Source of the DNA: an uncultured Planctomycetia bacterium
GTDB lineage: Bacteria; Omnitrophota; Gorgyraeia; 2-02-FULL-51-18
Assembly (NCBI GenBank): GCA_964402785.1
Contig: CAYODQ010000004.1
Span: 159 to 64,158, forward strand
Direction of reading: 5' to 3'
DNA length: 64,000 bases
In this document: positions 42,836 through 63,667 of the stretch, piece by piece
Position numbering within the stretch: position 1 is the first letter of the stretch
Layout: each line of letters begins with the position of its first letter
Position numbers and translations under genes: made by a program
Notes under the pieces: generated by a model
The model's input: the letters and a program-made list of their open reading frames with translations, nothing else
The model's database searches: none
What the model was told of the DNA's origin: nothing

Positions 42836-42857
42836 CGCTTTATTCATAGGAGATAAG

Positions 42858-43109: not shown

Positions 43110-43112
43110 TCA

Positions 43113-44519: not shown

Positions 44520-45556
44520 TGATCAGACGCTTCATTAAATATTTTGGTTTCAGAATGGCGATATTTTTTTTACCTATCGCTCTGCTAATGTCTTTCCCAG
44601 CCTGGGTTCTTTGGGTTTCGGGAGAGTGGACTCCCATGGATAAAGTTGTGCAAGCACAGCAAGTATTAAAAGTGCCTTTGAGAGTGGGTTTGGCGTATAG
44701 CAACCCAGCCAAATATTACAAACTCAAGTCGCTTATGGCCAGAAATGCCGAAATCGTTGCTTTTGGGAGCTCTCACTTGATGGCGTTTCGCGAAAATTTT
44801 TTTACTCCCCGCACTTTTTACAATGCAGCTGTGGGCGGATCCCGTCTTAATGATTTTGAGAAATTCATCTCACATGTGCCGATAGATTGCCAGCCCAAGA
44901 TCTTGATCGTGGGGTTGGATCCTTTTTTTGCCAAACCTGATTTTGATTGGTCCCAAAAGGAAGAAGATCGCTTCGACCGTCGAGCGGGGCCGCTGGATGC
45001 TATTCGCATCCTGGGAACTTCCTGGAAAAGTGTTTACAAGGATCTTTTCTTGGGCAAGTTTTCCGCGAGTCAACTATTGGCCGCGAATGATATGGACGAT
45101 AAGCCCATAGGTCTCGAGGCGGTTGTGAAAGGAAGTGGATTTTTGAATGACGGGGCTTATTTCCATAATAAGCCCGCATCCGCAGCCGAAGGTGAGGCGC
45201 CCGACCGTTCCAATTTAAAAGACGGGGAAACGTACGACGAAGTCGGGATAAACATGTTGGATCGTTTTTTGCAGATATGCCATGACCGCAACCTACGTGT
45301 GATCGGTATCTTGCCGCCCGTGCGTGAGCGCGTATACGATCAGCTAAACTCATCCGGATATTTATATTGGAAGGAGCTACCTAAAAAACTTGAACCCTTT
45401 TTTAAAAGTAGGGGTTTTTCGATATATGATTTTTCAAGCCCATCTTTTTATGGCGGAAATGACGCGGAATTCTATGACGATTTTCATGCTGCCGAAGACG
45501 CATATAGACGCGTTGCAGATAAGATTATCGAGTTAGAACAGCTTTCCAAGCCCTAA
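44516..45556 (+). CDS. DltD/AlgJ-like SGNH-fold acyltransferase partner
   Basis: N-terminal TM anchor, 'VAFGSSHLMAF' (Ser nucleophile block) and 'DDFHAAE' (DxxH catalytic block). Confidence 0.55.
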   Translation: MMIRRFIKYFGFRMAIFFLPIALLMSFPAWVLWVSGEWTPMDKVVQAQQVLKVPLRVGLAYSNPAKYYKLKSLMARNAEIVAFGSSHLMAFRENFFTPRTFYNAAVGGSRLNDFEKFISHVPIDCQPKILIVGLDPFFAKPDFDWSQKEEDRFDRRAGPLDAIRILGTSWKSVYKDLFLGKFSASQLLAANDMDDKPIGLEAVVKGSGFLNDGAYFHNKPASAAEGEAPDRSNLKDGETYDEVGINMLDRFLQICHDRNLRVIGILPPVRERVYDQLNSSGYLYWKELPKKLEPFFKSRGFSIYDFSSPSFYGGNDAEFYDDFHAAEDAYRRVADKIIELEQLSKP

Positions 45557-45610: not shown

Positions 45611-47239
45611 ATGACTAAGCGCGCCTTATTTTCGGTTGTTTTGCTTTTGGCCGCTTTATTTGGTCAGATTTTTTTTTCCATGCAAAAAAAAGCCCCCACT
45701 TGTGATGAGTTTGCCCATCATACAGCCAGCGGCTTCTCACACTTGGTGACTCGGGATTTCCGGATGAATCCTGCTGCTCCGCCTCTGCCCAGGCTTCTAT
45801 CGGCGATACCTTTGTATTTTTTGGGTGTAAAGGCACCGCTGGACGATGTGTCTTGGGAACAGGGTGATAGTCCGGCGTTTGCTCAAAAATTTTTCTATCA
45901 AGAAGGTTTTACCCAGGATGAGATCATTTTTTGGGCGCGATTGCCCATATTGCTACTTTCTCTGGTTTTTGGTTTTTTTGTGTATCGATGGTCATCCGAG
46001 CTGTTTGGCTTTGTCGGCGGAATAGCCTCTTTGGTTTTATTTGCATTTTGTCCGGACATTCTTGCACACTCAGGGCTTGCAACGTCTGACCTATCCGTCG
46101 CCTTCTTTTTTTATATGACGATTTGGCGGTTTTGGAAATATTTGGATAAGCAAAACGCCAAGAATTTGGTTTTGGCCGGGGTGATGGCCGGACTAGCGTT
46201 TCTTTCTAAATTCTCGGCTATCCTTATTTTCCCCACACTGATATTGGTTGCCGCTCTTAGTCGCTCATGGAAAAAATTGTCGATCGGGAAGATCGCGATG
46301 TTTATTGCCGTGTGTTTGTTTGTCGTGTGGGCGGGCTATGGTTTTGAGATAAAACCTCTTCTAGAGAATACTCCAGACCCACCAAAAAAAATTGCCGTGT
46401 ATCGCCAAATTGGGGGAGAGAATTTGGTGCATTTTGCTGAAAAGGTTCCTGTGCCGCTGTCCACATTTGTATCCGCCTTTAGCAGTATGATGTTCACGCG
46501 AGCCAAAGGGACAAATGCATTTTTTATGGGCGAGTGGTCCCATGGAACCAAAAGTTTTTGGCAATATTATTTTGTCGCTTTTGTGATCAAGAATACAATT
46601 CCATTTTTGATTCTGATCTTATTTTCTTTTTTTACGATGCGTTCGCTGAGTATAGATAAGGTGACACAGGCAGCGCTTTTAACTCCTGTTGCTTTTTTGT
46701 TTTTGGTGACGACGGGTGACAAAGCTCAGGCGGGTATCCGCTATTTCCTGCCCATCTATCCGCTGCTGTTCGTGTTGTGTGGGGGTTGTGTAGCCTGGCT
46801 GTGGAAAAATAAAAAGATCATGCGCTGGCTCGCTGTTGCGTTGCTATTTTGGCACGCCTATGAGGCAATTCGAATTTATCCAGATTATTTATCCCATTTT
46901 AATCAGCTGATCGGTGGCCCTGATCAAGGTCATCGTTATTTGCGAGATTCGAATATTGATTGGGGTCAGGATTTGAAGGGTGTGGCCGAGTGGGCACATG
47001 AGAATCATCACGGTGAAATTACTTTGGTGACCATATCTCCTGTGGATATGAAAAAGGCTTATGGTGTTGAATGGCGACTCATGGCTCCCGAGGAAAACCT
47101 CCAGCCCGGGCCGTATGTTTATGCGCTGGGGCTACATAATTTTGATACAGCAAAATGGACGCAGCATATCAAACCCGATAAAATCGTAGGTCACTCGGTC
47201 TGGATATACGATTTTACAAAAAAAGGAGATCTGGTTTGA
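45611..47239 (+). CDS. GT-C glycosyltransferase, PMT/ArnT (GT39/GT83)-like
   Basis: N-terminal 'CDEFAH' DE motif in the first loop and a multi-TM PMT_2-like architecture. Confidence 0.7.
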   Translation: MTKRALFSVVLLLAALFGQIFFSMQKKAPTCDEFAHHTASGFSHLVTRDFRMNPAAPPLPRLLSAIPLYFLGVKAPLDDVSWEQGDSPAFAQKFFYQEGFTQDEIIFWARLPILLLSLVFGFFVYRWSSELFGFVGGIASLVLFAFCPDILAHSGLATSDLSVAFFFYMTIWRFWKYLDKQNAKNLVLAGVMAGLAFLSKFSAILIFPTLILVAALSRSWKKLSIGKIAMFIAVCLFVVWAGYGFEIKPLLENTPDPPKKIAVYRQIGGENLVHFAEKVPVPLSTFVSAFSSMMFTRAKGTNAFFMGEWSHGTKSFWQYYFVAFVIKNTIPFLILILFSFFTMRSLSIDKVTQAALLTPVAFLFLVTTGDKAQAGIRYFLPIYPLLFVLCGGCVAWLWKNKKIMRWLAVALLFWHAYEAIRIYPDYLSHFNQLIGGPDQGHRYLRDSNIDWGQDLKGVAEWAHENHHGEITLVTISPVDMKKAYGVEWRLMAPEENLQPGPYVYALGLHNFDTAKWTQHIKPDKIVGHSVWIYDFTKKGDLV

Positions 47240-48279
47240 GTCAGCTTGGGATCGGGATCATTGGCGGGGGATTTGGGGTTCGGGCTCATTTGCCGGCATT
47301 TCGAGCGGATAAGCGGTGCAAGATCCAAGCGATAGCGCTAAGCTCCAGCTCCAAAGCTGCGCGTGTTGCCAAAGCTTATAAGATCCCTAAAAGTTATGGA
47401 TCCTGGAAAAGCTTGATCGAAGACACGGGTATCCATGCGATCAGCCTTGCGGTGCCTGCCGTTTTACAGCCGGATATCATCGAGTACGCGATCAAACATC
47501 AAAAGCCATTTTTTATTGAAAAGCCTTTGGCTGTCGATTTGGCGACGGCTCGTGAAATATCCAAAAAAGTTCTCTTGTCTAAACTCCCGCATGTGATTGA
47601 TTTTGAATTGCCACAAACATCGGCTTGGAGCAAGGCTAAGGCATTGATAGAGGCCGGCAAGCTGGGTCAAGTGCGACATGTGCTTTTAAATTGGCAACTC
47701 ATCACAGCTGCTAATAAAGAGGGCCAGCGTTCTTGGAAGACGGAGTCTGCTCAGGGCGGGGGGGCGCTTAATCTTTTTGCGAGTCATTCATTTCATTATT
47801 TAGAATGGCTTCTGGGGCCCATTGATGCGGTGAATGCGCGCTTACTCAAGGGCGCGGGGATTGTCGGTGACCAAGAAACACTTTGTGCGATACGCGTCCG
47901 ATTTAAAAAAGGGTTTTATGGAAATTTGACGGTGGCGGGTCATTGTCTTCATGGCAGCGGTCATCGTTTGGAAATATATGGTGATCGCGGGACACTTGTA
48001 CTTGCCAATAGCGTCGCGGGTGCGCTCGATCAGTTTCAGCTTTTCTTTGGATCGATAAATGACAGAGGGTTAAAGCGTATCCATACGACCCTAGCTCGAA
48101 AGCCTAAGAATGCTCGCGGTCGGATAGGTGCGGTGAGTGCTCTTGTGACCGCATTTGTATCGGCCGTCATAAAGAGGGGGCAAGTCAAGCCGGATATTCA
48201 AGATGCCTTGCGCGTGCAAGAGCTTTTGGATGCGGTTCGGAGGTCGCATGATGCATCGGGGCAAGCTATTTTTCTATGA
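47236..48279 (+). CDS. Gfo/Idh/MocA-family NAD(P)-dependent oxidoreductase
   Basis: 'GIGIIGGGFGVRAHLPAF' Rossmann N-terminus and 'EKPLA' motif. Confidence 0.75.
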   Translation: MSQLGIGIIGGGFGVRAHLPAFRADKRCKIQAIALSSSSKAARVAKAYKIPKSYGSWKSLIEDTGIHAISLAVPAVLQPDIIEYAIKHQKPFFIEKPLAVDLATAREISKKVLLSKLPHVIDFELPQTSAWSKAKALIEAGKLGQVRHVLLNWQLITAANKEGQRSWKTESAQGGGALNLFASHSFHYLEWLLGPIDAVNARLLKGAGIVGDQETLCAIRVRFKKGFYGNLTVAGHCLHGSGHRLEIYGDRGTLVLANSVAGALDQFQLFFGSINDRGLKRIHTTLARKPKNARGRIGAVSALVTAFVSAVIKRGQVKPDIQDALRVQELLDAVRRSHDASGQAIFL

Positions 48280-49970
48280 TCTCGTATAAAAAAAAGATCA
48301 TGGGGATCCTTTTTATAGCATTTTTATTACGTATGATCGGAATAGGTTTTGGATTGCCACACATCTATCATCAAGATGAGCCCATTATTGTGAATCACGC
48401 ACTTTCGATAGGCGCGGGTGGCTGGAACACGCATTTTTTTGTGATACCTCCTTTTACGATCTATTTCTTTTTTATTGCCCAGGGCGTTTATTTTGTGGTC
48501 GGAAAGCTCATAGGTATATTTCAGACATCTTCTGATTTTGCTCTTATGTTTATGCGAGATCCCACATCCGTCTATTGGATAGGCCGGTTTTTGCTGGGTG
48601 TTTGTTTCGGGACAACCACTGTCTGGGCGCTGTGGGTTGGATCTAAGCGTTTTTTTGGTGAAAGGGTAGCTTTTTGGGCGGCGCTACTTTTAGCTATTAC
48701 GCCTTTGCACGTTCAACACAGCCACTATATTTACGCCGATATACCGCTGACATTGGTTGTGACGATAAGTTATTTTGTGCTTTTATCAATACTTGAAGCG
48801 CCTCTGCTTCTCAGCTATCTCCGCTTTGGGGCGCTGATGGGCTGGGCAGCGTCTATCAAATATACGGGGCTTTATTTTGCGCCAATGATTGGATTGGCGC
48901 ATATGATCAGTCAGCCTAAAAACTGGTATAAACCGTCGCAAGTTATCAAATTGATCTTGTCGGGCGCTTCCTGCATCACTGTTTTTTTTATTTTTGCGCC
49001 GTTTAGTTTTCTGGACTGGAAAAATTTTTGGGGACAAATAAGTCATCAGGGCGGCGCTGAGAGCTTTGTGGGGCTCACGCATCATGCGGTGTATTCGATC
49101 GTGGGTGGGAGTGGTGTCGCATTTGTTTCGCTGGGGGTTCTTGGACTAATTGTGCTGGCCAAGAATGACATGCGCAAGGCCTGGATCACGGCCGGACTAC
49201 TACTTGTCTATTATGGGATCAATGTTGTATTTTCTCAGAATTTTGCGCGCTACATGCTTCCGCTTATGCCTGTACTGGCGCTTCTAGCGGCGATGGCGCT
49301 ACATAGACTTGGTCAGCTTTTGGAAAAAAAACGCGGTTTAATGATCGCGCTTCTCACCGTTCTTTGTGCAGAGCTTTTGGCGCCCACGGTTTATTTGGAT
49401 GCACTCTTTCTGGGTCAAGATACGCGTACCGAATGTGCTCAGTGGTTTGCTGACAATGTTGACGAGTCAAGTCCAGTTGCTGTGGACAATCGTTTTTTTG
49501 GCCCGCCTCTTCCATTATCAGAAGCGCAAATCAAAGGGAAGTATGCGAAGCTTGGCGGGTCTCAAAAGGATGATGTGAGGAAAAAGCGGCTTGACCTGAT
49601 GCTTGAAGGCTTAAAAGATCGCAAAGGATATAATGTCTATCAATTGGTTGCTCATGAAGACGAGTCGACTTCTCCATTTCTTTTTATGGGCCCTTTTGTG
49701 AAACAAGATTGGGATTCTATTGAGAAAGCAGGCGTCGAATACATCGTGATCCATACCACTGATTTTGACCAGTCAGCTTCAAATTTTGTCCGCGCTTCTC
49801 CACAAAAGGCTGAACTTTTGCGTTCATTTAGCCCTTACCGCGATCCTTTGAGGAAAATGAGCTTCGATCCGGAGGCATCCACGGCGGCGCCGCATTTGCC
49901 GAATGAAATATTTAGCCGTCACCTCTTGGGCCCTTATTTGGAGGTGTATCGTGTCAAACGAGACGGCTGA
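48276..49970 (+). CDS. GT-C glycosyltransferase, PMT/ArnT-like
   Basis: 'HQDEP' DE-loop motif, multi-TM N-domain and a C-terminal soluble domain. Confidence 0.65.
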   Translation: MISYKKKIMGILFIAFLLRMIGIGFGLPHIYHQDEPIIVNHALSIGAGGWNTHFFVIPPFTIYFFFIAQGVYFVVGKLIGIFQTSSDFALMFMRDPTSVYWIGRFLLGVCFGTTTVWALWVGSKRFFGERVAFWAALLLAITPLHVQHSHYIYADIPLTLVVTISYFVLLSILEAPLLLSYLRFGALMGWAASIKYTGLYFAPMIGLAHMISQPKNWYKPSQVIKLILSGASCITVFFIFAPFSFLDWKNFWGQISHQGGAESFVGLTHHAVYSIVGGSGVAFVSLGVLGLIVLAKNDMRKAWITAGLLLVYYGINVVFSQNFARYMLPLMPVLALLAAMALHRLGQLLEKKRGLMIALLTVLCAELLAPTVYLDALFLGQDTRTECAQWFADNVDESSPVAVDNRFFGPPLPLSEAQIKGKYAKLGGSQKDDVRKKRLDLMLEGLKDRKGYNVYQLVAHEDESTSPFLFMGPFVKQDWDSIEKAGVEYIVIHTTDFDQSASNFVRASPQKAELLRSFSPYRDPLRKMSFDPEASTAAPHLPNEIFSRHLLGPYLEVYRVKRDG

Positions 49971-50658
49971 CTATTACAAGGATTATTGGGTGGATGAGAC
50001 CCAAAAACGAAATAAACGAGCTTATTATGAACGATTGTATTCACATATCCGACCTCGACTTTATTTGGATCCAGCTTGGCGACTTTTGGATGTGGCGGGC
50101 GGCAATGGACACCTCCTGCAATACCTTGGCGTCGTCAAGGCGGATATTCTTGATATAAGTGAATCGGGTCTTCTCGCCGCCAATGCAGCTGGCTACGGCG
50201 CAATTTGTGGTGATATCCAGCGCAGATTCCCTTTTCCAGAGCAAAGCTATGATGCCGCACTTTGCTTTGAAGTGCTGGAGCACTTGCCGTATCCGGGTAA
50301 GACTTTGGCAGAGATCAATAACGTCTTGAAGTCCGGAGGTGTTTTGTATGTTGGTCAACCCAATATGAGAGCCGATGGCGTGCACCACGTGAGGCGGTAT
50401 TATTTGAAACCGCTCTTGGACGATCTTAAAAAAGCAGGATTTGGTATTGAGTGGGTGGATCATGTTCCGGCGTATTCGATGCGAGATGCTATTGTGAGTG
50501 ACATCCGTCATAACAAATCCTTTGTTAGGAAGACAATCCAATGTCTCAATCTTGTTTTGAGTTTGCTTCCCTGGCGCGTGAGATATGCCATGGCAAGTAT
50601 TTGGCCGGATCGTTTTTCTCTCATATTGGTTGTGAAAGCTATCAAACCCAATGAATAG
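49903..50658 (+). CDS. Class I SAM-dependent methyltransferase
   Basis: Motif I 'LLDVAGGNGHL' and motif II 'YDAALCFEVLEHLPYP'. The start is uncertain; GTG 49951 is possible. Confidence 0.65.
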   Translation: MKYLAVTSWALIWRCIVSNETADYYKDYWVDETQKRNKRAYYERLYSHIRPRLYLDPAWRLLDVAGGNGHLLQYLGVVKADILDISESGLLAANAAGYGAICGDIQRRFPFPEQSYDAALCFEVLEHLPYPGKTLAEINNVLKSGGVLYVGQPNMRADGVHHVRRYYLKPLLDDLKKAGFGIEWVDHVPAYSMRDAIVSDIRHNKSFVRKTIQCLNLVLSLLPWRVRYAMASIWPDRFSLILVVKAIKPNE

Positions 50659-53053
50659 CTTTATCCGCAAACACATTTGTTTTATCGCTCTTTACGGGAG
50701 CTTGTTTGTGATGCTTTTATGGCCACTTTTGATTTTCCAGAAAACTTTTATTTTTGGCGACTATTGGCAGCAGCACTATCCATGGGCGTACGAATACGCA
50801 CGTCTTTTAAAAATGGGACAACTTCCTTATTGGGTGCCAAGCGTTGCTGGCGGGTTCCCATTGTTAGCCGAAGGGCAGGTTGGAGCCTATTATTTACCAC
50901 ATCTTTTGTTGTATTTCTTTCTCCCGTTTTCAGTTGCGTATTCGCTCCTAATTCTTCTCCACACGCTTTCCGGCGGTGTTGGATTTTATGTGTATGGCCA
51001 AAAGATAGGGTTTTCAAAAGAAGCGGCTACGCTCATGAGCCTGCTCTTCTCATTTTCTAGTGCTTTTGGCGGCTGTTTTTCCAACACCGCAAGCCTGAAA
51101 GTGTTGTCTTGGTTGCCATGGTGTTTGTTGGCTTGGGAGTCCCTTGGGCATTCATCCGGAAAAAATAAACTACTTTGGATATCAGCTATAGGTTTTATGT
51201 TTGCGCAGATGTGGACAGCTGGAGCGCCGCAGATGGCGCTGTACGGCGTGGGATATTTATTTTGTTTTTGGATGGCAGAAAAGAGAGGGAAGGGCTTTTT
51301 GTTTTTTTTAGCCGCCTTTGTTGTAGGCGCCACTCTTTCGCTACCCCAATGGGCTTCAACCATGGAGCTTGTTCGTGTGTCGACGCGCGCGGGAGAAACA
51401 GCCGGTTTTGTTTTTTGGGGCTCGGTTGAGTTGCCTGCCGTGATCTCTCTTGCCTATCCAAGATGGGGGACTTTTTTGGGCGTCTCGTTATACATTGGTC
51501 AGGCTGCACTTTTGCTGACCCTTATCTCGCTACTGTCAAAGAAATCGCGTCTTGAAAAGCTTCATTGGTGGTTGGCTGTTTTTTTCTTCGTGCTGGCTTT
51601 AGGCAACAACGTCCCTTTTTTAGAAGCGCCGCTATCGTATGTAGTGGAGAGATTTTCTCTCACAGCTCTGCGCAACCCTTCGAAGTTTTTATTTTTTAGC
51701 ACGGTTTCGCTGTCGATTATTGCGGGCTTTGCCTTTGACCGCCTGAGGCATTTGTCTTTAGAGGAGAAGACCAGGAAGCGGCTAAGATTGGGGCTTTGGA
51801 TTTTTTGGGTGGGAGTGGTAGCGGCGCCTTTGATGGGGCAAATGGTATTCCAGTATTTTGAAAAACCGCTCAAGGAATTTGCGAATCGCGGTGCGGAGGC
51901 AGCTTTTTCAGGAAAGAAAGACCCCTTCCATTCCATTTCTTATTATCAGGACAAAGCAGATCAAATGCTCGTTGAAGCACAAAAGCTTTTTAATTATACA
52001 GACAAGTGGAATATTCTAGCTATCTCATTTTTGTGCTTATCTTTTTTATTTGTCATGCTGCTCTTCAAGCGGGATTCTTCCGGCAAGTGGAAAAGAGGCG
52101 CTTTGCTTGCCGTGCTCTGGTTGGATCTCCTCATTTACGGATTGTTTATCGGCAACGGCTTTATTGGCAATGTTCGAGCGTATCCGAACGATCTTCCAAA
52201 AGTTTTTATCTCTGAGATTTTGGAACAGCAGCAGTCCAAGCACAGCGCTCTCATTGGTTGGCCGGATGAACACAATCAGGAAGCTCTACCCGCAAACACC
52301 AACCTGCTATATGGTTTTAATCATGCGGGCGGATACTCACCGCTATTGCTTAAGAGGTATTATGAGCTAACCAAGGAGCTTGGTATTTCCGACAGCTCGC
52401 TGGGTCGCCGTCCTTATTCGGAAGATATATGGAAAAATGAGTCCGGCCTCGTGCATGCGCTAGGAATAGGCCAAATACTATCTAACAAGGAGCTCTCAAT
52501 ATCAAGCACTCGTCTTTTGAGCCTCAGTCATCAGAGACGCTCCCCGGGTAACTCATCGGAGGATCATTATCTGTATACCTTCGAACCGATTCTGCCTTAT
52601 GCGTATCTGGTTTTTAATTGGAAAAGTATGTCGGATGAGAAGATCAGGCTGGCCTATTTGAAAAGTGATGAATTTGTTCCTTTCAAAGAGGCCGTCATTG
52701 AGAGCGCGCCCACGGATCGGCTGCCCCGCGCTGATCTTTTGATGACCCCTGTGCACACCCGATCAAAAAAAGACACAGAATTTGTTTTGGATGTCGATGT
52801 TGCGTCCGATGCGTTGCTCGTTGTCCGAAGTGCATTTTATCCGCGATGGAAAGCGGAGCTAGACGGAGAAGAGTTGGTTGTGATGCCGGTTAATCATATC
52901 TATTCAGGGGTATTTCTGAAAGCGGGGCAGTGTGAGGTCAGGTTTTTTTATGATACGAAGCCGCACCGTTTTTTTGAATCCATATCGCTGACGTTGGGTA
53001 TGGTTCTGCTGCTCATGCAAGTGATAATTTTATGGATTTTGCCAAAAAAATAA
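50651..53053 (+). CDS. YfhO-family membrane glycosyltransferase-like protein (GT-C fold)
   Basis: 800 aa polytopic with the YfhO-like N-terminus 'IFGDYWQQHYPWAYEYARLLKMGQLPYWVPSVAGGFPLLAEGQ'. Confidence 0.6.
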   Translation: MNSFIRKHICFIALYGSLFVMLLWPLLIFQKTFIFGDYWQQHYPWAYEYARLLKMGQLPYWVPSVAGGFPLLAEGQVGAYYLPHLLLYFFLPFSVAYSLLILLHTLSGGVGFYVYGQKIGFSKEAATLMSLLFSFSSAFGGCFSNTASLKVLSWLPWCLLAWESLGHSSGKNKLLWISAIGFMFAQMWTAGAPQMALYGVGYLFCFWMAEKRGKGFLFFLAAFVVGATLSLPQWASTMELVRVSTRAGETAGFVFWGSVELPAVISLAYPRWGTFLGVSLYIGQAALLLTLISLLSKKSRLEKLHWWLAVFFFVLALGNNVPFLEAPLSYVVERFSLTALRNPSKFLFFSTVSLSIIAGFAFDRLRHLSLEEKTRKRLRLGLWIFWVGVVAAPLMGQMVFQYFEKPLKEFANRGAEAAFSGKKDPFHSISYYQDKADQMLVEAQKLFNYTDKWNILAISFLCLSFLFVMLLFKRDSSGKWKRGALLAVLWLDLLIYGLFIGNGFIGNVRAYPNDLPKVFISEILEQQQSKHSALIGWPDEHNQEALPANTNLLYGFNHAGGYSPLLLKRYYELTKELGISDSSLGRRPYSEDIWKNESGLVHALGIGQILSNKELSISSTRLLSLSHQRRSPGNSSEDHYLYTFEPILPYAYLVFNWKSMSDEKIRLAYLKSDEFVPFKEAVIESAPTDRLPRADLLMTPVHTRSKKDTEFVLDVDVASDALLVVRSAFYPRWKAELDGEELVVMPVNHIYSGVFLKAGQCEVRFFYDTKPHRFFESISLTLGMVLLLMQVIILWILPKK

Positions 53054-53085
53054 TCTAGAGTTCTTTGGGATGGGGCGGGGGCGGT

Positions 53086-54561
53086 ATGCGCGGTAAAAAA
53101 TGGGTGGCCTTGATCTTTGCGCTTGCAATATTTGTGAGGGTCTATAATCTAAACGTCCCATTTGTAGAGCGTTTTAACAGTATATCTCGTCTCTCCAACT
53201 GCGCCTCGGTAGCGCGGAATTTCTACACGAACGGTTTTAATTTCTTTTACCCGGAAATTGACGAAAATGGCCCGGGACCTTATCTTCTCAATGCCGAGAT
53301 GCCGACCAATACTTATTTGATGGCGTTGGCATATGCACTTACGGGTGGTGTGCATGAGTGGGCCGCGCGCGCCGTCTCGGTGCTTTTTTCGCTGGGAACC
53401 CTTCTTGTCCTGTATCTGTTTATTCGAAAGCTTGCCAACGAAAAAATGGCGCTTTATGCTTTGGTCTTCGCATCCTTCTCACCCATGAATGTCGCTTTGG
53501 CTAGGTCTATTCAATGTGATACCACCATGGTCTTTGCAGGGCTATGGGCGCTATATTTATTTTATCGCTATAGTGAGACGGGACGATGGGCCCATCTTTT
53601 AGGATCTGCGTTTGCCATGGCTTTGGCTGTCGGGACCAAGATTTACGCTTTGTACTTATTCATCCCTATTATATATTTGGCTTGGGAGCGGGAAGGGTGG
53701 GTGATCTTTAGGCGGCCCCGATATTATTTGTACTGTTTTCTGGTTTCTCTTACTCTGATCTGGTATTTTTACATGTGGAAGGCGGGGAAAGGGCAACAGC
53801 TAGCCTACTCGACGTTTGGCTACCCGGAAGGTCTTGTTCAGGGTCGTTTTGGGTTTCTTAAGCTTTTTGGGATGCCCCATATAAAAATGCCCGCGGTGGG
53901 TTTGGCGGCTCATATCTTGACGCCTGCAGGCATAGTCTTATTTGCGTTCGGACTATTTAGGAACACATTTAAAAGTCATCGATTTGCATGGGTGTGGCTA
54001 TTTTCAGTTGGCTTTTATTTGCTGGTCATGTGGCCGATGGTTGTGATGCATCCGTATTATTTATTACCCGCGATTCCCCCCATTGCTTATTTTGTTGCTT
54101 TGGGAGCGCAGCGCATCCTTTTGAATCCGCGCTTTGCGATTGTTAGACGGACATGGTTTTGGTTGCCAGTTTGCGCACTCGTTCTACTGAGTGTGTTTTA
54201 TTATTACCGCCTGCTCTATTTTATCCCAAAAGATAGGATGTCCATTGTGGAGGCGGGGAAGGCGACCGACTCTTTGACTCCCAGGGATAGTTTGGTCATC
54301 GCTTCCTGGGGTGAGAGCCCGATCCAGCTATATTATTGTAACCGAAGGGGATGGTCTTTTAGTTTGGACAGACCAGACGGAAGCGGCTTGATCGAGAGTC
54401 TCGAAGAAAAAAGAAGTCGGGGTGCCGGCTATTTTATGACCACTCATGTTGATCAGCTTCATCGCTTGCCGCTGTTTGAGCAGTATTTACGTTCCCGATA
54501 CTCTGTGGTGAAGGAAAGCGGGGAGATGATCCTTTTTGACCTAAGGGCAGAGGGGGCTTGA
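53086..54561 (+). CDS. GT-C glycosyltransferase, ArnT/PMT-like
   Basis: 'YPEIDENGP' acidic loop, >10 TM helices and a C-terminal soluble domain. The start is taken at ATG 53086; the ORF-track start is TTG 53065. Confidence 0.65.
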   Translation: MRGKKWVALIFALAIFVRVYNLNVPFVERFNSISRLSNCASVARNFYTNGFNFFYPEIDENGPGPYLLNAEMPTNTYLMALAYALTGGVHEWAARAVSVLFSLGTLLVLYLFIRKLANEKMALYALVFASFSPMNVALARSIQCDTTMVFAGLWALYLFYRYSETGRWAHLLGSAFAMALAVGTKIYALYLFIPIIYLAWEREGWVIFRRPRYYLYCFLVSLTLIWYFYMWKAGKGQQLAYSTFGYPEGLVQGRFGFLKLFGMPHIKMPAVGLAAHILTPAGIVLFAFGLFRNTFKSHRFAWVWLFSVGFYLLVMWPMVVMHPYYLLPAIPPIAYFVALGAQRILLNPRFAIVRRTWFWLPVCALVLLSVFYYYRLLYFIPKDRMSIVEAGKATDSLTPRDSLVIASWGESPIQLYYCNRRGWSFSLDRPDGSGLIESLEEKRSRGAGYFMTTHVDQLHRLPLFEQYLRSRYSVVKESGEMILFDLRAEGA

Positions 54562-54678
54562 TGGATAAAAATCCAAACAACCGATATTTAGATATCGTTT
54601 ATGTTCTGTGGCTGGTTTGGGTTGTGAGCGTTTACGCACTGTTGGTGATCATTCCTAAAATCCAAGGAAAAATCTAAA

Positions 54679-56505
54679 ATGCAATTTATAGGAGCCGGAC
54701 CCATTGTGGCTCTATGGGCAACCACATTGTTGTTGATCGTGCTATTTGCCGCTTTTCGTGTAGGCAGCTTAATGCTTCAATTGCTGAAGCTGCCGGATAC
54801 CACATTAACAAAGCGCGAACATGTTCTTTTCGCGTTGGCGGCGGGACTTGTAATAGTTTCGCTTACTATTTTAGGTATTGGATCATTTGGTTTACTCACA
54901 AGGCCTTATGTTTGTGCAGCGCTGTGTTTTTTTATGATAGCACCCTATTCTGTCTCTTCGAAAAGACCCCCTTGCCAGCTGGTGTTGACAAGTGGATCCG
55001 TGAGATCAGCCGCTCAGGTAAAATTTTTTTGGATTCTCACAATACCTGTTTTTTTCTTCTCCTGGATCCAGGCACAGATGCCTGCTGGCGGAACGGACGC
55101 GCTGGCCTATCATTTGTTTCATCCGAAGCTGTACGTATTGCAACAAAAGATATTCCATATGCCACCAGAATTCAACCGAGAGTCGCTGTGGCCTTACCAA
55201 ACTGAAATGCTCTTCACTCTGGGACTGTTGTTGCAGGGAACACTTTTAGCTCAACTTTTTCACTGGGTTTTCTATATACTGACCTCTGCGGCTGTATTTA
55301 TGTTTGGCGAAAGATTCTTTGGGCGGAGCCTCGCGTATTTGTCGGCTCTGGTTTTTATTTTTACGCCCGCAGCGTTCGCCCAATCAGGTTATGCCTATGT
55401 TGATCTGAGCCTTGCTTTCTATACCTTTCTCGCTTTGTACGTTTTGCTGATCGCTTCCTATGGGAATTGTGTTCGGCCTTGGTTTTTGTCCGGATTCTTT
55501 GCGGGGGGCGCTGCCGCGACCAAGCTTCTGGGTTTAGGTTGTGTGCTAATTTTGTTTTTAGGTGCTTTGATAGTAACTAGAATTAATTGGAGGGTGCTCC
55601 TTTGTTTTGCGCTGGGATGTTTCGTGGCTTCGGGTGTTTGGTATTTGAGAAGCTGGATTATCTTGGGAAATCCCGTGTTCCCATTTTTCTCAAGTCTTTT
55701 TCAAGGAAATGGGTGGCATCACGAAATTAGCGAGGGAGTTAGTATGGGGAAAGATTTCAAAGCCTTCCTGCTTTTGCCTTGGAATATGACAATGTATCCC
55801 CGAAACTTCGGAGGAGAAATGGTGGGCCCCTTTTTTTTACTATTTCTGCCGCTATTTTTTGTTCAGTCCATCCGAAAGTCCTCGAGGGTGCTAGCTAGCC
55901 TTGCATTGTTTGCAGTTTTTTACGGCGGATTTCTGTTTACTCAGTCGCAGCACGTGCGCTTTTTTTTGTCCGTTCTACCGGTGATTTCTGTAGCTGTCGG
56001 TGTGTCACTAGAGTTATGCATGAGGCGAAGAGGTCCTCTGAGGCACGCTGTCATGGCGGTTCTGGCTTTAGTTTTTTTGACCCATATGGGTATATTTGTT
56101 TACCGTACAAGGGACTGTTGGCCCGTTGCCATAGGGAAAATGAGCGCCAGAGATTATTTGTTGGCTTATGAGCGCTCTTTCAAAGGAAACGATTATTTGC
56201 TGCGACACATGCAAGCGTCGGAGCAGCTTCTCTACTCCGCGGAAGTTCGTTATTTTTATAATGATAATAAAAATGTTGTGTGGGATTGCTATCCGCTGCG
56301 GCTTGTTTTGACGCAGAAGGGTATGACTCTGACCCAGTTTTTATCCGGAAAGCAGCTGGACTATGTTTGGCTTGGAGATGATACCACGCAAGAGTTGTGG
56401 GATTATGTACGAGACAGAGACTATGAGTTAGCCTATCAGTATCAGTTCATAGAAAAGCCAACCACTTTCAACAATTATATTTACCGGCTAAAAAAACAGC
56501 CCTAG
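54679..56505 (+). CDS. GT-C-fold membrane glycosyltransferase-like protein
   Basis: 608 aa with an N-terminal multi-TM region, periplasmic loop motifs (GTDALAYH, PEFNRE) and a C-terminal soluble domain. Confidence 0.5.
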   Translation: MQFIGAGPIVALWATTLLLIVLFAAFRVGSLMLQLLKLPDTTLTKREHVLFALAAGLVIVSLTILGIGSFGLLTRPYVCAALCFFMIAPYSVSSKRPPCQLVLTSGSVRSAAQVKFFWILTIPVFFFSWIQAQMPAGGTDALAYHLFHPKLYVLQQKIFHMPPEFNRESLWPYQTEMLFTLGLLLQGTLLAQLFHWVFYILTSAAVFMFGERFFGRSLAYLSALVFIFTPAAFAQSGYAYVDLSLAFYTFLALYVLLIASYGNCVRPWFLSGFFAGGAAATKLLGLGCVLILFLGALIVTRINWRVLLCFALGCFVASGVWYLRSWIILGNPVFPFFSSLFQGNGWHHEISEGVSMGKDFKAFLLLPWNMTMYPRNFGGEMVGPFFLLFLPLFFVQSIRKSSRVLASLALFAVFYGGFLFTQSQHVRFFLSVLPVISVAVGVSLELCMRRRGPLRHAVMAVLALVFLTHMGIFVYRTRDCWPVAIGKMSARDYLLAYERSFKGNDYLLRHMQASEQLLYSAEVRYFYNDNKNVVWDCYPLRLVLTQKGMTLTQFLSGKQLDYVWLGDDTTQELWDYVRDRDYELAYQYQFIEKPTTFNNYIYRLKKQP

Positions 56506-56564
56506 GGAATTGTTGCGCGGAGAAGCATTATCGAATAGACTGATAGGGTTGCGAAGCAAAAAGG

Positions 56565-57335
56565 ATGGATATGAGGATTTCGGCTTTTTTCCCTTGTTAT
56601 AACGAAGAAAAAAATCTGACAGATCTGGTGTCTAGCTGCGACAAGGTTTTGCGCGAGATCTGCGATGACTACGAGATCATCATTGTAGATGACGGAAGTA
56701 CGGATAACACCACTGCCGTTGCGCAGCTGTTGCAGCAACAATACGATAAGCTTCAGTATATCCGCCATGCCAAAAATCATGGGTATGGCGGGGCGGTTTA
56801 CACGGGCTTTAAAAAAAGCCGCTTTGAGTACATTTTTTTCTCGGATGGTGACAATCAATTTAATCTCGAAGAGATCCCGCTTTTAGTTAAAAAGATCTCC
56901 GAGGCGGACCTGGTCACGGGGTTTCGTCATCAGCGCGCTGATCCTCTGATGCGCCATATGATAGCCTGGGTTTATAGGTTGGTGGTGCGCATTGTTTTTG
57001 GACTCGGGATCACCGATATTGATTGTGCTTTTAAGCTTTTTAAACGCGATACGCTCCAAAGGATAGATATAAGAAATATTGTTTCCAGGGGTGCTCTTAT
57101 CAACACCGAGATTTATGCGCGTATGAAGAAGCTCAATATGACGGTGATAGAGGTGCCGGTTACACATTATGCGCGATTGACCGGAAAGCAAACCGGCGCA
57201 AGTCCCAGGGTTATTTTAAGAGCGATGTTTGAGTTAGTGAGCCTTTCTGTTAAGCTTCGGCGAGAAGGTCTTCAGATTCACACGGAAAAGCCGTCGAGGG
57301 TGCCCGATGGTTCTTTAGTCAACGAAACGAGGTAA
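56565..57335 (+). CDS. GT2 polyprenyl-phosphate sugar synthase (GtrB/DPM1-like)
   Basis: 'FFPCYNEEKNL', 'IIVDDGSTDNT' and 'SDGDNQ' DxD motifs. Confidence 0.8.
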   Translation: MDMRISAFFPCYNEEKNLTDLVSSCDKVLREICDDYEIIIVDDGSTDNTTAVAQLLQQQYDKLQYIRHAKNHGYGGAVYTGFKKSRFEYIFFSDGDNQFNLEEIPLLVKKISEADLVTGFRHQRADPLMRHMIAWVYRLVVRIVFGLGITDIDCAFKLFKRDTLQRIDIRNIVSRGALINTEIYARMKKLNMTVIEVPVTHYARLTGKQTGASPRVILRAMFELVSLSVKLRREGLQIHTEKPSRVPDGSLVNETR

Positions 57336-57337
57336 GA

Positions 57338-58528
57338 ATGTTTTCTAATCAATCAAAGATGACCATGATCAAAGCCGCGCTCAATCACGATGCGCCGGTT
57401 TACGTTCAATTTTTTGTCACGGCTCGATGCAATCTAACCTGTAAGCAGTGCAACGTTATCTACTCCAATGCGGATGTGCGGGAATGCACTCTCGAAGAAG
57501 TTAAGAGAATAGCCGATAATTTTAAAAAAATGGGCGTTGCGATGGTTGTGCTTACGGGTGGAGAGCCGTTTATTCGCCAAGATCTACCTGAGATCATACG
57601 AGAATTTGAAAGCCGCGGCATTCATGTGCGCATGCAAACCAACGGTCTGGCGACGGCTGAGCAAATCCACAAGGCGGTTGAGTATGGAGCAAAGGATGTT
57701 TCCATTTCGCTTGATTCGCTGGATCCGGCGATGCAGGATGATATCAACGGTGGTTTTGCCGAGTCTTGGCACAAAGCTTTGAAGGCCATAGCGTTATTCA
57801 CCCAATATCTACCCAAGAAGGATGGTTTTGGGGCCTTGGGTTGTGTCATGCAAAGTCAGAATCTCCATGAGATCGAGAACATTATCCGCTTTGGGACCGA
57901 GATCGGTTGGCATTCTTCGCTGGTGCCGATCCATGTATCGGATCATTCGATTCCACTTGGTTTTCGAACGCTCGATAAAAGCTTGAAATTTAAAGAGCAT
58001 GAATACGCGCAGGTAGATGCGCTTGTTGAGCGCGTTCGTAAGATGAGGGACAGCGGTTATCTTGTCTATGACAGCGATCAGTTCTTTGATGATGTGAAGC
58101 GTTTTGTGCGAGACGGCTCCTCCACTTGGCGCGACAAGAACGGTGGTGTTTGCGACAGTCCCGGACTTTATTTTACACTGCTTCCCAATGGCCATTTCGC
58201 CGTGTGCTGTGATTATCGGATGCCTTATGCTATACCCGCCTATGCGCCTGATTTTGTAAAAACTTATCATGACGAAAAATTCCGCAAGGACGTGCATAAA
58301 GTTGCCAAAAGCTGCACTGAGGGCTGCATGTATGGCTGTTTTCCCGAGATAACCATATCCAGTCGCTTTATGGGGGCTACTTTTCAGAGAGCCAAAACAT
58401 TCTTCCTTCAAAAAAGGAAAAATCCTTGGCCGCTTAGCTATGAGCAGATTCTTGCGATTGCCAAAAAACACAATCAACGCAACGTAGAAGCCAATAATTT
58501 AAGTTATGCCCAAAAAGATACGGTTTGA
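57338..58528 (+). CDS. Radical SAM protein with C-terminal Cys-rich (SPASM/twitch-like) region
   Basis: 'FVTARCNLTCKQCNV' CxxxCxxC and 'VLTGGEPF'. The C-terminal cysteine cluster is CDSPG...CCDYR...CTEGCMYGC. Confidence 0.7.
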   Translation: MFSNQSKMTMIKAALNHDAPVYVQFFVTARCNLTCKQCNVIYSNADVRECTLEEVKRIADNFKKMGVAMVVLTGGEPFIRQDLPEIIREFESRGIHVRMQTNGLATAEQIHKAVEYGAKDVSISLDSLDPAMQDDINGGFAESWHKALKAIALFTQYLPKKDGFGALGCVMQSQNLHEIENIIRFGTEIGWHSSLVPIHVSDHSIPLGFRTLDKSLKFKEHEYAQVDALVERVRKMRDSGYLVYDSDQFFDDVKRFVRDGSSTWRDKNGGVCDSPGLYFTLLPNGHFAVCCDYRMPYAIPAYAPDFVKTYHDEKFRKDVHKVAKSCTEGCMYGCFPEITISSRFMGATFQRAKTFFLQKRKNPWPLSYEQILAIAKKHNQRNVEANNLSYAQKDTV

Positions 58529-59675
58529 AAGTGCTGCGCATCAGTTTTTGACCGCAGTCCACTCGTCTAGGGCTGAAGCGGGAGGGTCGGGGTGGTCTTC
58601 CTTTACTCAGTCTCTTAAAGTTGAAGACGATCCTTCTGTGTCCTCCGGCGGTATACGCGTCCTTTGGGCTAGCCCCAAGCCCGGAGAAGCCCGCTTTTCT
58701 CTCCAAGATGCGCGGTTTTATCAGCGGGCGGGAAGTGTTGTTGCGGATGATGGGCAGCTGAGTTCTGGCTCCCTTGAAGATCCTATTCAGGAAATGAATC
58801 GGCAGTTTTTTAAGAATATCGCCTCGCAAGTCATTGCAAAAGCCGGATTTAACTCGAGCGCTGAAGCACCCGAAAGATTTGCCAAAGAAGAAGTTTTTCA
58901 TGATCAGTGGGCGAGCGAAACAGACATTTCCAAGATCGACGTCATCAAGATCTGTGAGGCTGCCACTTCTCCTGAGATACGCTATATCCGCGCCTCGATC
59001 CCTAACCTCAAAGGCAAAAAACTTCTGGATGTGGGCTCCGGGCTTGGGGAAGTGTCTGTTTATTTTGCTCTTCAGGGCGCACAAGTTACAGCGGTGGATA
59101 TATCCGAGAACATGCTTAGGTGCACCGCCGATCTCGCAAAGCGCTACGGCGTCACAGTGCGTACCCACAAAACAGCTTTGGAGACATTGACGCTGCCGGA
59201 TGGCGAGCTTTTTGATGTCATCTACGCAGGAAATATATTTCATCATGTGGATATTGAGGCGGCGCTCAAGGCGCTCAAAAAACATCTGAAGCCGGATGGG
59301 GCTCTCGTTAGCTGGGACCCAGTTGCTTATAATCCGGCCATCAATGTGTATCGAAAGATGGCTATGGATGTTCGTACGGTGGATGAACATCCGCTAACAT
59401 TGAAAGATATTAAGATATTCAAGAGACATTTTACCGATGTAAAAACACGCTGGTTTTGGCTTACAACCCTATCCATTTTTATTTACATGGCCTTGGTTCA
59501 AAAGCGAAATCCCGGTAAGGAGCGCTATTGGAAGGTGGTCGTGGATGAGGCTGACCGCTGGAAAAATCCTTACTCTTTTCTGGAAAAGATTGACAGGGGA
59601 TTGCTGACACTTCTTCCGTTTTTGAAATTATGGTGCTGGAACGTCGTCATTATTTCTAAAAAACCTGTAGCTTGA
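58506..59675 (+). CDS. Class I SAM-dependent methyltransferase with N-terminal extension
   Basis: Motif I 'LLDVGSGLGEV', post-I 'VTAVDIS' and motif II 'FDVIYAGNIFHHV'. An alternative start near 58794 is possible. Confidence 0.6.
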   Translation: MPKKIRFESAAHQFLTAVHSSRAEAGGSGWSSFTQSLKVEDDPSVSSGGIRVLWASPKPGEARFSLQDARFYQRAGSVVADDGQLSSGSLEDPIQEMNRQFFKNIASQVIAKAGFNSSAEAPERFAKEEVFHDQWASETDISKIDVIKICEAATSPEIRYIRASIPNLKGKKLLDVGSGLGEVSVYFALQGAQVTAVDISENMLRCTADLAKRYGVTVRTHKTALETLTLPDGELFDVIYAGNIFHHVDIEAALKALKKHLKPDGALVSWDPVAYNPAINVYRKMAMDVRTVDEHPLTLKDIKIFKRHFTDVKTRWFWLTTLSIFIYMALVQKRNPGKERYWKVVVDEADRWKNPYSFLEKIDRGLLTLLPFLKLWCWNVVIISKKPVA

Positions 59676-59770
59676 TCGGTTTTGCCCGCTTTTTTGATGA
59701 CCACTAATGACTACTATTGACATTTAATGACGTTAATAGATACACTCATAGATGGAAGAATTTTGGAGAA

Positions 59771-60022
59771 ATGGCCTTGGAAATCAAAGAAAATGAGGTT
59801 TACACCCACGAAGAAACGCAGGCGCTCCTCAAGGTCAGCGCTAGCACTGTCACGCGCATGATCAAGAAGGGGCTGATCCGTACAGCCAAGGTCGGAAAGC
59901 AGTACCGCATCATGGGCAAGGAGCTTTTGCGAGTACTATCCCCCAAACTAGAAGACAAGGTAGGCAAAGCCTATAACAAGGCTCGAAATTGGGCGCACAA
60001 GGATTATGAGAAAAAGATCTGA
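59771..60022 (+). CDS. Excisionase/MerR-type helix-turn-helix DNA-binding protein
   Basis: 'VYTHEETQALLKVSASTVTRMIKKGLIRTAKVGKQYRI' matches the HTH_17/excisionase-family pattern, 83 aa. Confidence 0.6.
   Translation: MALEIKENEVYTHEETQALLKVSASTVTRMIKKGLIRTAKVGKQYRIMGKELLRVLSPKLEDKVGKAYNKARNWAHKDYEKKI

Positions 60023-61098: not shown

Positions 61099-61106
<8 letters not shown>
60006..61106 (+). CDS. pseI: NeuB-family nonulosonic acid synthase (pseudaminic/legionaminic/sialic acid synthase)
   Basis: 'DVFIIAEAGSNW...GADAVKFQ' NeuB TIM-barrel N-terminus plus a C-terminal SAF domain. Context with pseB/pseC/GNAT/cytidylyltransferase. Confidence 0.8.

Positions 61107-63663
<2,557 letters not shown>

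Positions 63664-63667
<4 letters not shown>

Follow-up and report, generated by a model that had tools for sequence, protein, structure and literature searches.

In bacterial three-component transmembrane glycosylation systems, such as CsbB/GtcA/YfhO, GtlA/GtlB, GacI/J/K/L and GtrABC, a glycosyltransferase of the GT-A fold works with a flippase and a membrane glycosyltransferase of the GT-C fold (hereafter, GT-C). Such systems, some of them with YfhO or PMT_2 enzymes, are well documented for teichoic acids, cell-wall polysaccharides and lipopolysaccharide (LPS), and in them a family 2 glycosyltransferase (GT2) of the GacI kind depends on a small membrane partner, which for GacI is GacJ (PMC8035078). 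Here we analyze a stretch of 64,000 nucleotides from contig CAYODQ010000004.1 (assembly GCA_964402785.1), which we call the window. Close relatives of its proteins belong to Candidatus Omnitrophica/Omnitrophota, and five GT-C genes are clustered at positions 45611 to 56505. We read the region as an Omnitrophota envelope-glycan super-locus that combines donor synthases with GT-Cs glycosylating from the periplasmic side, and we put the probability of this reading at roughly 70%. The observations that underlie it are protein folds, family membership, conserved acidic residues and conserved co-location of the genes.

Each component comes from a known family, the mechanism is of a known kind, and mycobacteria offer a precedent for loci rich in GT-Cs. 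The unusual feature is a fixed combination across a candidate phylum, namely a helix-less GT2, three PMT_2-type GT-Cs, a YfhO-type GT-C and a micro-protein, for which we found no description in the searchable literature. Nor did we find a description of GT-C arrays in Omnitrophota in the searchable literature.

A preliminary description of this stretch, made from the letters of the sequence, had named four PMT/ArnT-like GT-Cs and a YfhO-like GT-C of 800 residues. All open reading frames (ORFs) that it named were found on the + strand with the same coordinates, and the five GT-C membrane proteins are confirmed. Three of the first four exceed the Pfam gathering score for PMT_2, which is 26.1 bits. 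These are GTC1 (45611 to 47239, 61 bits), with orthologues 31 to 67% identical in seven loci; GTC2 (48276 to 49970, 45 bits), with orthologues 31 to 74% identical; and GTC3 (53086 to 54561, alternative start 53065), which matches PMT_2 at 71.7 bits and PMT at 34.8 bits, and for which an identical NCBI protein exists (P0001). GTC1 and GTC2 belong to the conserved core defined below, and GTC3 is accessory.

The fourth protein, GTC4 (54679 to 56505, core), scores 18.6 bits for PMT_2, which is under the gathering score, and its homologues match PMT, PMT_2 and DUF8201. It was placed by invariant residues and by its AlphaFold model, in which three extra helices precede the rest at the N-terminus (predicted local distance difference test, pLDDT, 92.1; predicted template-modeling score, pTM, 0.93). 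When this model was compared with the PDB by using Foldseek, the top match was ArnT (5f15, E = 1.6e-8, template-modeling scores 0.54/0.60). All of the 36 top-ranked PDB matches are GT-C enzymes, with STT3, ALG12, ALG9, AglB, AftA, PglB and Pmt4 coming after ArnT.

The YfhO-type GT-C (50651 to 53053, 800 residues, core) matched no Pfam family at E-values up to 10 in a direct search with the protein, YfhO (PF09586) included. Its homologues make the connection: 30 of the 37 that were aligned, at 19 to 74% identity, match YfhO, the best at 5e-30. Its predicted structure (36 homologues in the alignment, pLDDT 91.3, pTM 0.90) has AftD as its best Foldseek match in the PDB, followed by ArnT, STT3, PglB and Pmt4, and ends in a beta-rich outside domain and then a final helix. 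Both modeled proteins thus take the GT-C fold that the preliminary description had supposed, each with a helical bundle and then a C-terminal mixed or beta domain, and neither takes a non-GT fold. A transporter or another non-GT fold was considered for these two proteins and is ruled out by the fold searches.

Hydropathy analysis gives 8 to 13 segments in every GT-C candidate. In comparisons made with hhalign, the GTC4 family matches GTC1, GTC2 and GTC3 at probabilities of 99.2%, 99.6% and 99%, respectively, and the profiles of the four PMT_2-type families recognize one another at 98.6 to 99.6%. Because the profiles match mutually, while pairwise BLAST among the GT-Cs of the window finds faint similarity only, these proteins are old, divergent paralogues. 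A recent tandem duplication is ruled out by the same faint BLAST similarity. Sequence searches of the PDB with GTC3, its family profile, GTC1 and GTC2 matched no GT-C; the ArnT model is absent from the NCBIfam matches of the GT-Cs, and neither phmmer nor profile searches matched ArnT chains. Judged by such searches, GTC1, GTC2 and GTC3 are too divergent to be placed in ArnT or PMT at the sequence level.

To assess conservation within the loops, orthologues from related loci were aligned, with identity down to 26 to 35%. An acidic residue directly after the first helix is kept in all five GT-Cs across orthologues of about 30% identity, as the preliminary description had anticipated when it pointed to the loop motifs CDEFAH, HQDEP and PEIDENGP. 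All three motifs are present. In GTC1, D32-E33 and H36-H37 (motif CDEFAH) are invariant after helix 1, and in GTC2, H32 and D34-E35 of HQDEP are invariant; the DE of these two motifs therefore stands as described. The third motif fared less well: GTC3 conserves E28 and D59, but D59 is the only conserved acid of PEIDENGP, the others being replaced in the orthologue of locus L014. In the YfhO-type protein, D37 is conserved in every aligned orthologue that covers the N-terminus. D140, D242 and K282 are invariant in GTC4, and D140 is its acid after the first helix. From their place after helix 1, we infer that the conserved D/E loops face outward.

The second line of evidence is conservation of the gene set. 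We compared Omnitrophota contigs, labeled L001 to L018. The core consists of a DegT gene, the GT2 gene at 33413, the genes for GTC1, GTC2, the YfhO-type GT-C and GTC4, and a gene for a 38-residue single-helix protein; the rest of the window is accessory. The DegT, GT2 and four GT-C genes recur together in at least nine other Omnitrophota contigs at 26 to 60% identity, usually with an HTH gene and pseudaminic-acid-type genes after them. In L001, L006, L009, L010, L013/L015, L014, L017 and L018, the four GT-C orthogroups adjoin one another, and in L005, L011, L012 and L016 (truncated) they do so in part, with 26 to 75% identity over all loci together. In L006, L009, L010, L013/L015, L014, L017 and L018, the GTC1-, GTC2-, YfhO- and GTC4-type genes and a GT2 gene stand side by side, and their proteins are 26 to 60% identical to those of the window. 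L001 has the gene order of the window, with proteins 64 to 98% identical. The barest version is that of L017, in which menaquinone genes are followed by DegT, a GT2 (59% identical to that at 33413), the GTC1-, GTC2-, YfhO- and GTC4-type genes, HTH_17 and PseB-like genes; its setting after menaquinone genes is shared with the window. The genome scan was seeded with the GTC4 family, as the alignment of the 800-residue family varied too much for this purpose.

These loci bear directly on whether the density of GT-C genes has any functional meaning. The preliminary description called the array exceptionally dense, and the clustering is real, but it is a conserved cassette typical of the lineage and not peculiar to this genome. 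One could suppose that the GT-C genes are dense by accident, in a hypervariable surface-polysaccharide island that was acquired horizontally and has no functional unity. Hypervariable loci with LPS and capsule glycosyltransferase genes have been reported in Omnitrophota (bioRxiv 10.64898/2026.06.07.730766), accessory content varies between loci, and the GC content falls to 0.42 with flat skew at 34 to 36 kb. However, the four orthogroups have stayed with the GT2 and the micro-ORF even where identity is 26 to 60%, the L017 cassette occupies the chromosomal position that it has in the window, and the base composition of 45 to 60 kb is like that of the rest of the window. We therefore regard such an accident as very improbable. 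Chance clustering, or a purely mobile island, is largely refuted by the conserved synteny.

The third line of evidence concerns donor synthases. The GT2 of the core, GT2a (33413 to 34156, Glycos_transf_2 81 bits), is DPM1/ArnC/GtrB-like, and its PDB matches are solely DPMS (5mlz, 5.5e-21), ArnC and GtrB. Its orthologues, 58 to 59% identical, adjoin a GTC1-type gene in L006, L017 and L018. A second, accessory GT2, GT2b (56565 to 57335, 105 bits), matches ArnC (9hwj, 2.8e-18), the DPMS of Pyrococcus (2.8e-17) and GtrB in the PDB, and its top NCBIfam matches are ArnC, PgfS, PpgS and AglJ; GT2 matches are all under equivalog cut-offs. Unlike GtrB and ArnC of the two-helix type, GT2a and GT2b (247 and 256 residues) are without a hydrophobic C-terminal segment. 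They resemble the helix-less type of DPM1, PpgS and GacI, which works via a membrane partner, and both are putative polyprenyl-phosphate sugar synthases. The preliminary description had assigned donor synthesis to a GtrB/DPM1-like GT2, which is the protein at 56565. That protein is indeed ArnC/DPMS/GtrB-like, but it is GT2a, next to DegT, and not GT2b that accompanies the conserved cassette as its donor synthase.

The first core gene (32310 to 33416) encodes a DegT/PseC-like protein, presumably a nucleotide-sugar 4-aminotransferase (Pfam DegT_DnrJ_EryC1, 406 bits). Its best NCBIfam matches are PseC, WecE-type, LegC and ArnB, all below cut-off. A DegT gene directly precedes the GT2 gene in L006 and L017, as it does a GT2 gene in L013/L015. 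Because the DegT protein encoded beside GT2a is a 4-keto-sugar aminotransferase by its best matches, an amino sugar is the likely donor sugar.

Taken together, these features suggest a mechanism in four steps. In the cytoplasm, DegT, a Gfo/Idh/MocA oxidoreductase, methyltransferases and a radical SAM (S-adenosylmethionine) enzyme would make modified nucleotide sugars, probably 4-amino sugars. The helix-less GT2a and GT2b would then load single sugars onto polyprenyl phosphate. A flippase encoded outside the window would move the lipid-linked sugar to the periplasmic face. Finally, GTC1, GTC2, the YfhO-type GT-C, GTC3 and GTC4 would pass the sugar to envelope acceptors via the acid of the first outside loop, and an MptB-like protein at 35199 probably acts likewise. 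The co-located GT2 synthases are what points to transfer from a polyprenyl-phosphate-linked donor.

Several points weigh against reading the region as a super-locus for periplasmic glycosylation. The structural models cover the YfhO-type protein and GTC4, and GTC1, GTC2 and GTC3 were placed by PMT_2 scores and hhalign. No GT-C reaches any curated equivalog cut-off or matches a solved GT-C by sequence alone; therefore, specificity is not transferable from a characterized enzyme. The Pfam matches of the window genes include no flippase family of the GtrA, ArnE/F or Wzx type. For the prevalence of the cassette across the phylum, the analysis covered a sample obtained with a single peptide pattern and a small number of look-ups. 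Enzyme activity, donor identity, topology, flipping and all acceptors are inferred. On balance, periplasmic-face glycosylation from lipid-linked sugars, as the preliminary description had proposed, is supported by the folds, the acidic residues and the similarity of the GT2s to donor synthases.

A search for small polytopic ORFs in the window found none. The GT-C cassette of L018 contains an EamA gene of the DMT superfamily (5040 to 5873, - strand), which has no equivalent in the window and may encode the flippase for the lipid-linked sugar.

The remaining member of the core is the micro-protein. Its gene has 38 codons (54561 to 54677, between the GTC3 and GTC4 genes) and encodes a single predicted helix, with no Pfam match. 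The ATG overlaps the stop codon of the GTC3 gene (TGATG), and its own stop codon lies 1 nucleotide before the ATG of the GTC4 gene, an arrangement that would couple it to both neighbors. A comparable ORF of 33 to 45 codons is directly upstream of the GTC4-type gene in 15 of 15 loci, these being the loci that include the 5' end of that gene. The encoded peptides have a basic N-terminus, one helix and an invariant W-x7-Y, usually followed by (I/V)-P-(K/R)-(I/L). A loose pattern built on these features has 29 matches in six frames of 334 kb, 15 of them exactly at this position and 14 elsewhere. The translational coupling and the strict co-location suggest that the micro-protein binds either GTC4 or the GT2; it may be a subunit of the GTC4-type protein or the membrane partner of the helix-less GT2.

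Two small proteins offer parallels. Ost4, a subunit of 36 residues with a single helix, is bound to the GT-C STT3, and DltX is a small membrane protein of the dlt operon. Like these, the micro-protein would be a single-helix protein of about 35 to 40 residues whose gene accompanies that of a polytopic membrane transferase and which probably binds this transferase. The likeness is one of size and context, and no sequence relation is expected.

Outside the core, the window carries insertions: a block at 34138 to 45556, the Gfo oxidoreductase gene, a methyltransferase gene, the GTC3 gene, and a trio consisting of GT2b, radical SAM and methyltransferase genes. The block begins with an Acyl_transf_3 membrane O-acyltransferase (34138 to 35247, PF01757, 79.6 bits); a similar gene in L016 is beside DegT, GT2 and a GT87-like gene. 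Next is GTC0 (35199 to 36605, alternative start 35247), a borderline GT-C that resembles MptA/MptB (GT87). It scores 25.8 bits for PMT_2 against the cut-off of 26.1, 38.4 for MptB against a cut-off of 40, and 43.7 for MptA against a cut-off of 439; the near miss to MptB is a matter of similarity, not of membership. GTC0 has a 42% identical orthologue in L007, and a GT87/PMT_2 gene occupies the matching sub-module of L016. A single-sequence profile comparison of GTC0 with the GTC4 family was not significant. The preliminary description had paired a GT2 with a GT-C-like protein at 33413/35247. The GT2 holds, the GT-C-like protein (35199/35247 to 36605) is borderline, and the ORF between them (34138 to 35247) is the acyltransferase. 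The segment from 34001 to 36000, which includes the acyltransferase and GTC0, has a GC content down to 0.42 and a GC skew of about 0, compared with about 0.48 and +0.1 in its surroundings, and it may have been acquired. GTC0 is followed by an 824-residue protein (36559 to 39033) in which a central domain like that of spermine/spermidine synthase (30 bits) is flanked by two terminal membrane domains, and for which the other loci examined have no counterpart.

The remainder of the block, from 39011 to 45556, looks like a Dlt-type extracytoplasmic acylation module that would be loaded with a glycerate-derived unit instead of D-alanine. It encodes a MaoC dehydratase (39011 to 39454, a Pfam match), a FabG-like short-chain dehydrogenase/reductase (39451 to 40164), FkbH (40092 to 41948, 309 bits, above cut-off), a methyltransferase (41873 to 42835), an acyl carrier protein (42729 to 43109, PP-binding), a DltB-like membrane-bound O-acyltransferase, or MBOAT (43113 to 44519, DltB 176 bits), and a DltD/SGNH-like protein (44516 to 45556, weak DltD match). 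MBOAT and DltD-like genes adjoin GT-C genes in L001 and L016, and FkbH and methyltransferase genes do so in L005. None of the 12 best-ranked papers on FkbH, MBOAT and DltB combines FkbH with DltB, and we found no description of an FkbH-loaded Dlt-like module in the searchable literature.

The composition of the core and the presence of this module raise the possibility that the core builds one glycan, which could be a homo-oligomer or polymer or belong to a lipoglycan, and that its assembly takes place entirely on the periplasmic face, with one polyprenyl-phosphate amino sugar as the donor. By analogy with mycobacterial MptB/MptA/MptC/PimE or AftA-D/Emb, the four GT-Cs would carry out priming, elongation and branching, and the Dlt-like module would esterify the polymer. 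The minimal cassettes of L017 and L018, in which one GT2 goes with four deeply divergent, always co-located GT-Cs, favor this idea, as do the MptA/MptB-like GTC0, AftD as the top structural match of the 800-residue protein, and the DltB/DltD-like pair that adjoins the GT-Cs in the window as well as in L001 and L016. Also, no initiating phosphoglycosyltransferase, Wzx/Wzy, ABC exporter or cytoplasmic GT-B was found in 32 to 64 kb. However, characterized PMT_2 and YfhO enzymes add single sugars (PMC8035078), the distant loci L010 and L013 have two or three GT2 genes and thus possibly more than one donor, and no polymer anchor or ligase was found. We consider a single glycan possible, with a probability well short of one half.

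Several of the other insertions would supply enzymes for the cytoplasmic tailoring of nucleotide sugars. As the preliminary description had indicated, a Gfo/Idh/MocA sugar oxidoreductase is encoded between GTC1 and GTC2 (47236 to 48279, a Pfam match); the gene is in L001 and not in the minimal cassette of L017. Of the two or three methyltransferases that the preliminary description had counted, two were found, both class-I SAM-dependent enzymes: one at 49903 to 50658 (Methyltransf_11 56.6 bits, with an 83% identical orthologue in L001) and one with a hydrophobic C-terminus at 58506 to 59675 (68.4 bits), whose orthologues, 38 to 39% identical, follow a GT2 in L007 and L010. The third ORF (57338 to 58528) encodes instead a radical SAM enzyme with a Cys-rich C-terminal part (Radical_SAM 93.8 bits). 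Its similarity to GDGT-MAS, MoaA and others is in the core domain only and is far below curated cut-offs.

Between the window (56565 to 58528) and L001 (13586 to 14825), GT2b is 94% and the radical SAM protein 98% identical, whereas the neighboring GT-Cs are only 64 to 84% identical. The radical SAM protein of L004 (segment compared, 1400 to 2705) is 93% identical. This pattern suggests either much stronger constraint on the cytoplasmic enzymes or a recent exchange of the segment.

GTC3-type genes are present in some loci only. In L002/L003, a 44% identical orthologue of GTC3 is part of an Arn-like gene set (3067 to 11494) that encodes a 453-residue dehydrogenase/epimerase, a formyltransferase, a polysaccharide deacetylase, a Gfo/Idh/MocA protein, two epimerases, a GT2 and the GT-C. 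As in the window, a run of HTH_17, NeuB, GNAT, PseB and PseC genes comes after this set.

This Arn-like context speaks for a different organization, in which each GT-C adds a single sugar to a different existing acceptor, as in Arn, Gtr and Csb systems, and the cluster is a set of independent decoration systems sharing donors. The acceptors might include lipid A phosphates, the core or O-antigen of LPS, or a polysaccharide that contains pseudaminic acid. The combination of DegT, GT2 and GT-C parallels ArnB-ArnC-ArnT; in Listeria, one GT-A, GttA, serves both GtlB and GttB (PMC8035078); accessory genes have been gained and lost between genomes; and the window encodes an AsmA-like protein, which is typical of diderms. 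However, the four GT-C orthogroups remain strictly together over a large evolutionary distance, beyond what would be expected of independent decorations. Moreover, no ArnT equivalog score was obtained, and ArnA and ArnD genes were not found in the window. Separate decorations are therefore a tentative explanation, about as plausible as a single glycan.

Some 38 kb from the cassette, the window encodes a further candidate GT-C, a protein with a TMTC-like membrane domain of about ten helices and strong tetratricopeptide repeat (TPR) matches (7381 to 9192, + strand). Its membrane-domain family has 50,673 representative proteins at E <= 0.001 and keeps F40, D43-D44 after helix 1, H142-P143-x-Q145-T146 and K197-E198. 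The conserved residues agree with the motifs of TMTC O-mannosyltransferases, DD, HPxxT and KExxT (PMC7801869). The preliminary description had called this protein TMTC-like, and the three motifs bear that out, but its membrane domain has no Pfam match, DUF1736 included, and profile similarity is weak. With hhalign, its family aligns to the GTC4 family in the expected register at E = 6.7e-4 and a probability of 27%; a single-sequence profile comparison of the N-terminal domain with the GTC4 family was not significant, and the PDB profile search with the family was dominated by TPR matches. The protein is probably TMTC-like and a seventh GT-C.

Its presence leads to the question of whether the GT-Cs are protein O-glycosyltransferases of the PMT, TMTC or Pgf kind, acting on Ser/Thr-rich surface proteins, pilins or giant Omnitrophota proteins. 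In addition to the TMTC-motif TPR protein, the PMT and PMT_2 family matches fit such a role, as does the resemblance of GT2b to PgfS of the streptococcal protein-glycosylation system. In streptococci, GT-Cs are reported to glycosylate Ser/Thr-rich regions from undecaprenyl-phosphate-linked sugar (PMC12041528). However, neither the cassette nor its surroundings contain a candidate acceptor protein, the acceptors known for YfhO-type and MptB-like enzymes are polymers or lipoglycans, and ArnT outranks Pmt structures in both fold searches. A role in protein O-glycosylation is consequently unlikely. It is not mutually exclusive with a single glycan or with separate decorations, nor are those two with each other.

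Downstream of the cassette, a small HTH_17 DNA-binding protein (59717 to 60022, a Pfam match) is encoded between the GT-C genes and a group of nonulosonic-acid genes of the pseudaminic-acid type, encoding NeuB, GNAT, PseB-like and PseC-like proteins (60006 to 63667; NeuB 238.6, Polysacc_synt_2 350.6 and DegT 355.1 bits). The HTH_17 gene has the same position in L002, L015 and L017, and in L016 and L018 it is a few genes downstream, still between the cassette and sugar genes. Pseudaminic-acid-type genes also follow the cassette in L002, L009, L013 and L017. From 32.3 kb to the end of the window, all genes lie on the + strand and either overlap or are separated by short gaps; each is related to sugars or envelope modification. 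Because promoter and terminator counts in a scan of 44 to 61 kb were no higher than in shuffled sequence, operon boundaries could not be drawn. The top promoter-like match of the scanned region (10/12) is at 59717 to 59746, at the HTH_17 gene.

Upstream, a run of membrane-protein genes (927 to 7109, + strand) that encodes DUF2339 (1113 residues), M48 peptidase, DUF2157 and GDYXXLXY proteins is directly before the gene for the TMTC-like TPR protein. Genes for Ham1 and the AsmA-like protein, at about 10 to 13 kb, begin a housekeeping stretch, which continues from 14 to 32 kb with fatty-acid synthesis, SMC, a GGDEF protein, UbiE/UbiD/UbiA/UbiX and futalosine menaquinone genes. Among the quinone genes, an AbiU2-type HEPN gene of a phage-defense family (26965 to 27528, + strand, 38.5 bits) separates UbiD from UbiA.

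Members of the Omnitrophota occur widely, are for the most part uncultured and often ultra-small, and may depend on hosts. A gene set kept across this phylum points to a major, uncharacterized surface glycoconjugate, which could affect contact with host or prey, phage recognition and cell-surface charge. One specific form of it, which we put forward as a rather doubtful conjecture, is a phylum-specific glycopolymer or lipoglycan. A constant set of four GT-Cs, one of them with its own 38-residue Ost4-like subunit, would assemble it wholly in the periplasm, with a polyprenyl-phosphate amino sugar as donor, and in some lineages an FkbH-loaded DltB/DltD-like pathway would esterify it with an acyl group derived from glycerate. 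If true, this polymer would amount to a layer like teichoic acid or lipoarabinomannan (LAM) in a diderm candidate phylum. The cassette provides defined targets for heterologous reconstitution, and the conserved pair of micro-protein and GT-C offers a way into whether bacterial GT-Cs use small subunits, as the eukaryotic oligosaccharyltransferase does. The FkbH-fed Dlt-like module, if real, would be a new route for acylating extracytoplasmic polymers.

Compared with known systems, the locus has partial likenesses to four. It shares with eukaryotic and actinobacterial protein O-mannosyltransferases (PMT, TMTC) and with streptococcal Pgf enzymes the PMT/PMT_2 domain, the DE after helix 1 (in GTC1 and GTC2) and, in the protein at 7381, TMTC motifs together with TPR. 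It differs from them in that no MIR domains and no DUF1736 match are present, and Pmt structures rank under ArnT and STT3 in the fold searches.

The Arn pathway, which modifies lipid A with aminoarabinose by means of ArnB-ArnC-ArnA-ArnD-ArnE/F-ArnT, likewise has a DegT-type 4-aminotransferase beside an ArnC-like GT2 and ArnT-fold GT-Cs, and ArnT is the top structural match of GTC4. The formyltransferase and deacetylase genes that accompany the GTC3 orthologue in L002/L003 are a further likeness. However, the window proteins have no ArnT or ArnC equivalog score and no sequence-level match to ArnT structures; no ArnA, ArnD, ArnE/F, formyltransferase or deformylase was found in the window; and the window has four to six GT-Cs, compared with one in the Arn pathway.

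Mycobacterial loci for arabinogalactan and lipomannan/LAM (AftA-EmbCAB, AftB/D, MptA/B/C, PimE and Ppm1) provide a parallel to the clustering of GT-C genes with that of a lipid-linked donor synthase, and in both cases assembly takes place, or here is proposed to take place, in the periplasm from polyprenyl-phosphate monosaccharides. The score of GTC0 just under the MptB cut-off and the AftD fold match of the YfhO-type protein fit this parallel. The differences are that the window has no Emb/Aft orthology and no decaprenyl-phosphoribose pathway, that phylum and envelope are not the same, and that a polymer product is here only conjectured.

The three-component systems are alike in that a GT2 of the GT-A fold makes a polyprenyl-phosphate monosaccharide and a PMT_2- or YfhO-type GT-C carries an acidic motif in an outside loop, roles that we propose for the proteins of the window. 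As GacI needs GacJ, the helix-less GT2 here may need a small membrane partner. However, the present locus has no GtrA/Wzx-type flippase nearby, and its host belongs to a diderm candidate phylum. Also, whereas the three-component systems have one GT-A for one, or rarely two, GT-Cs, here one GT2 is accompanied by four divergent GT-Cs and a 38-residue protein.

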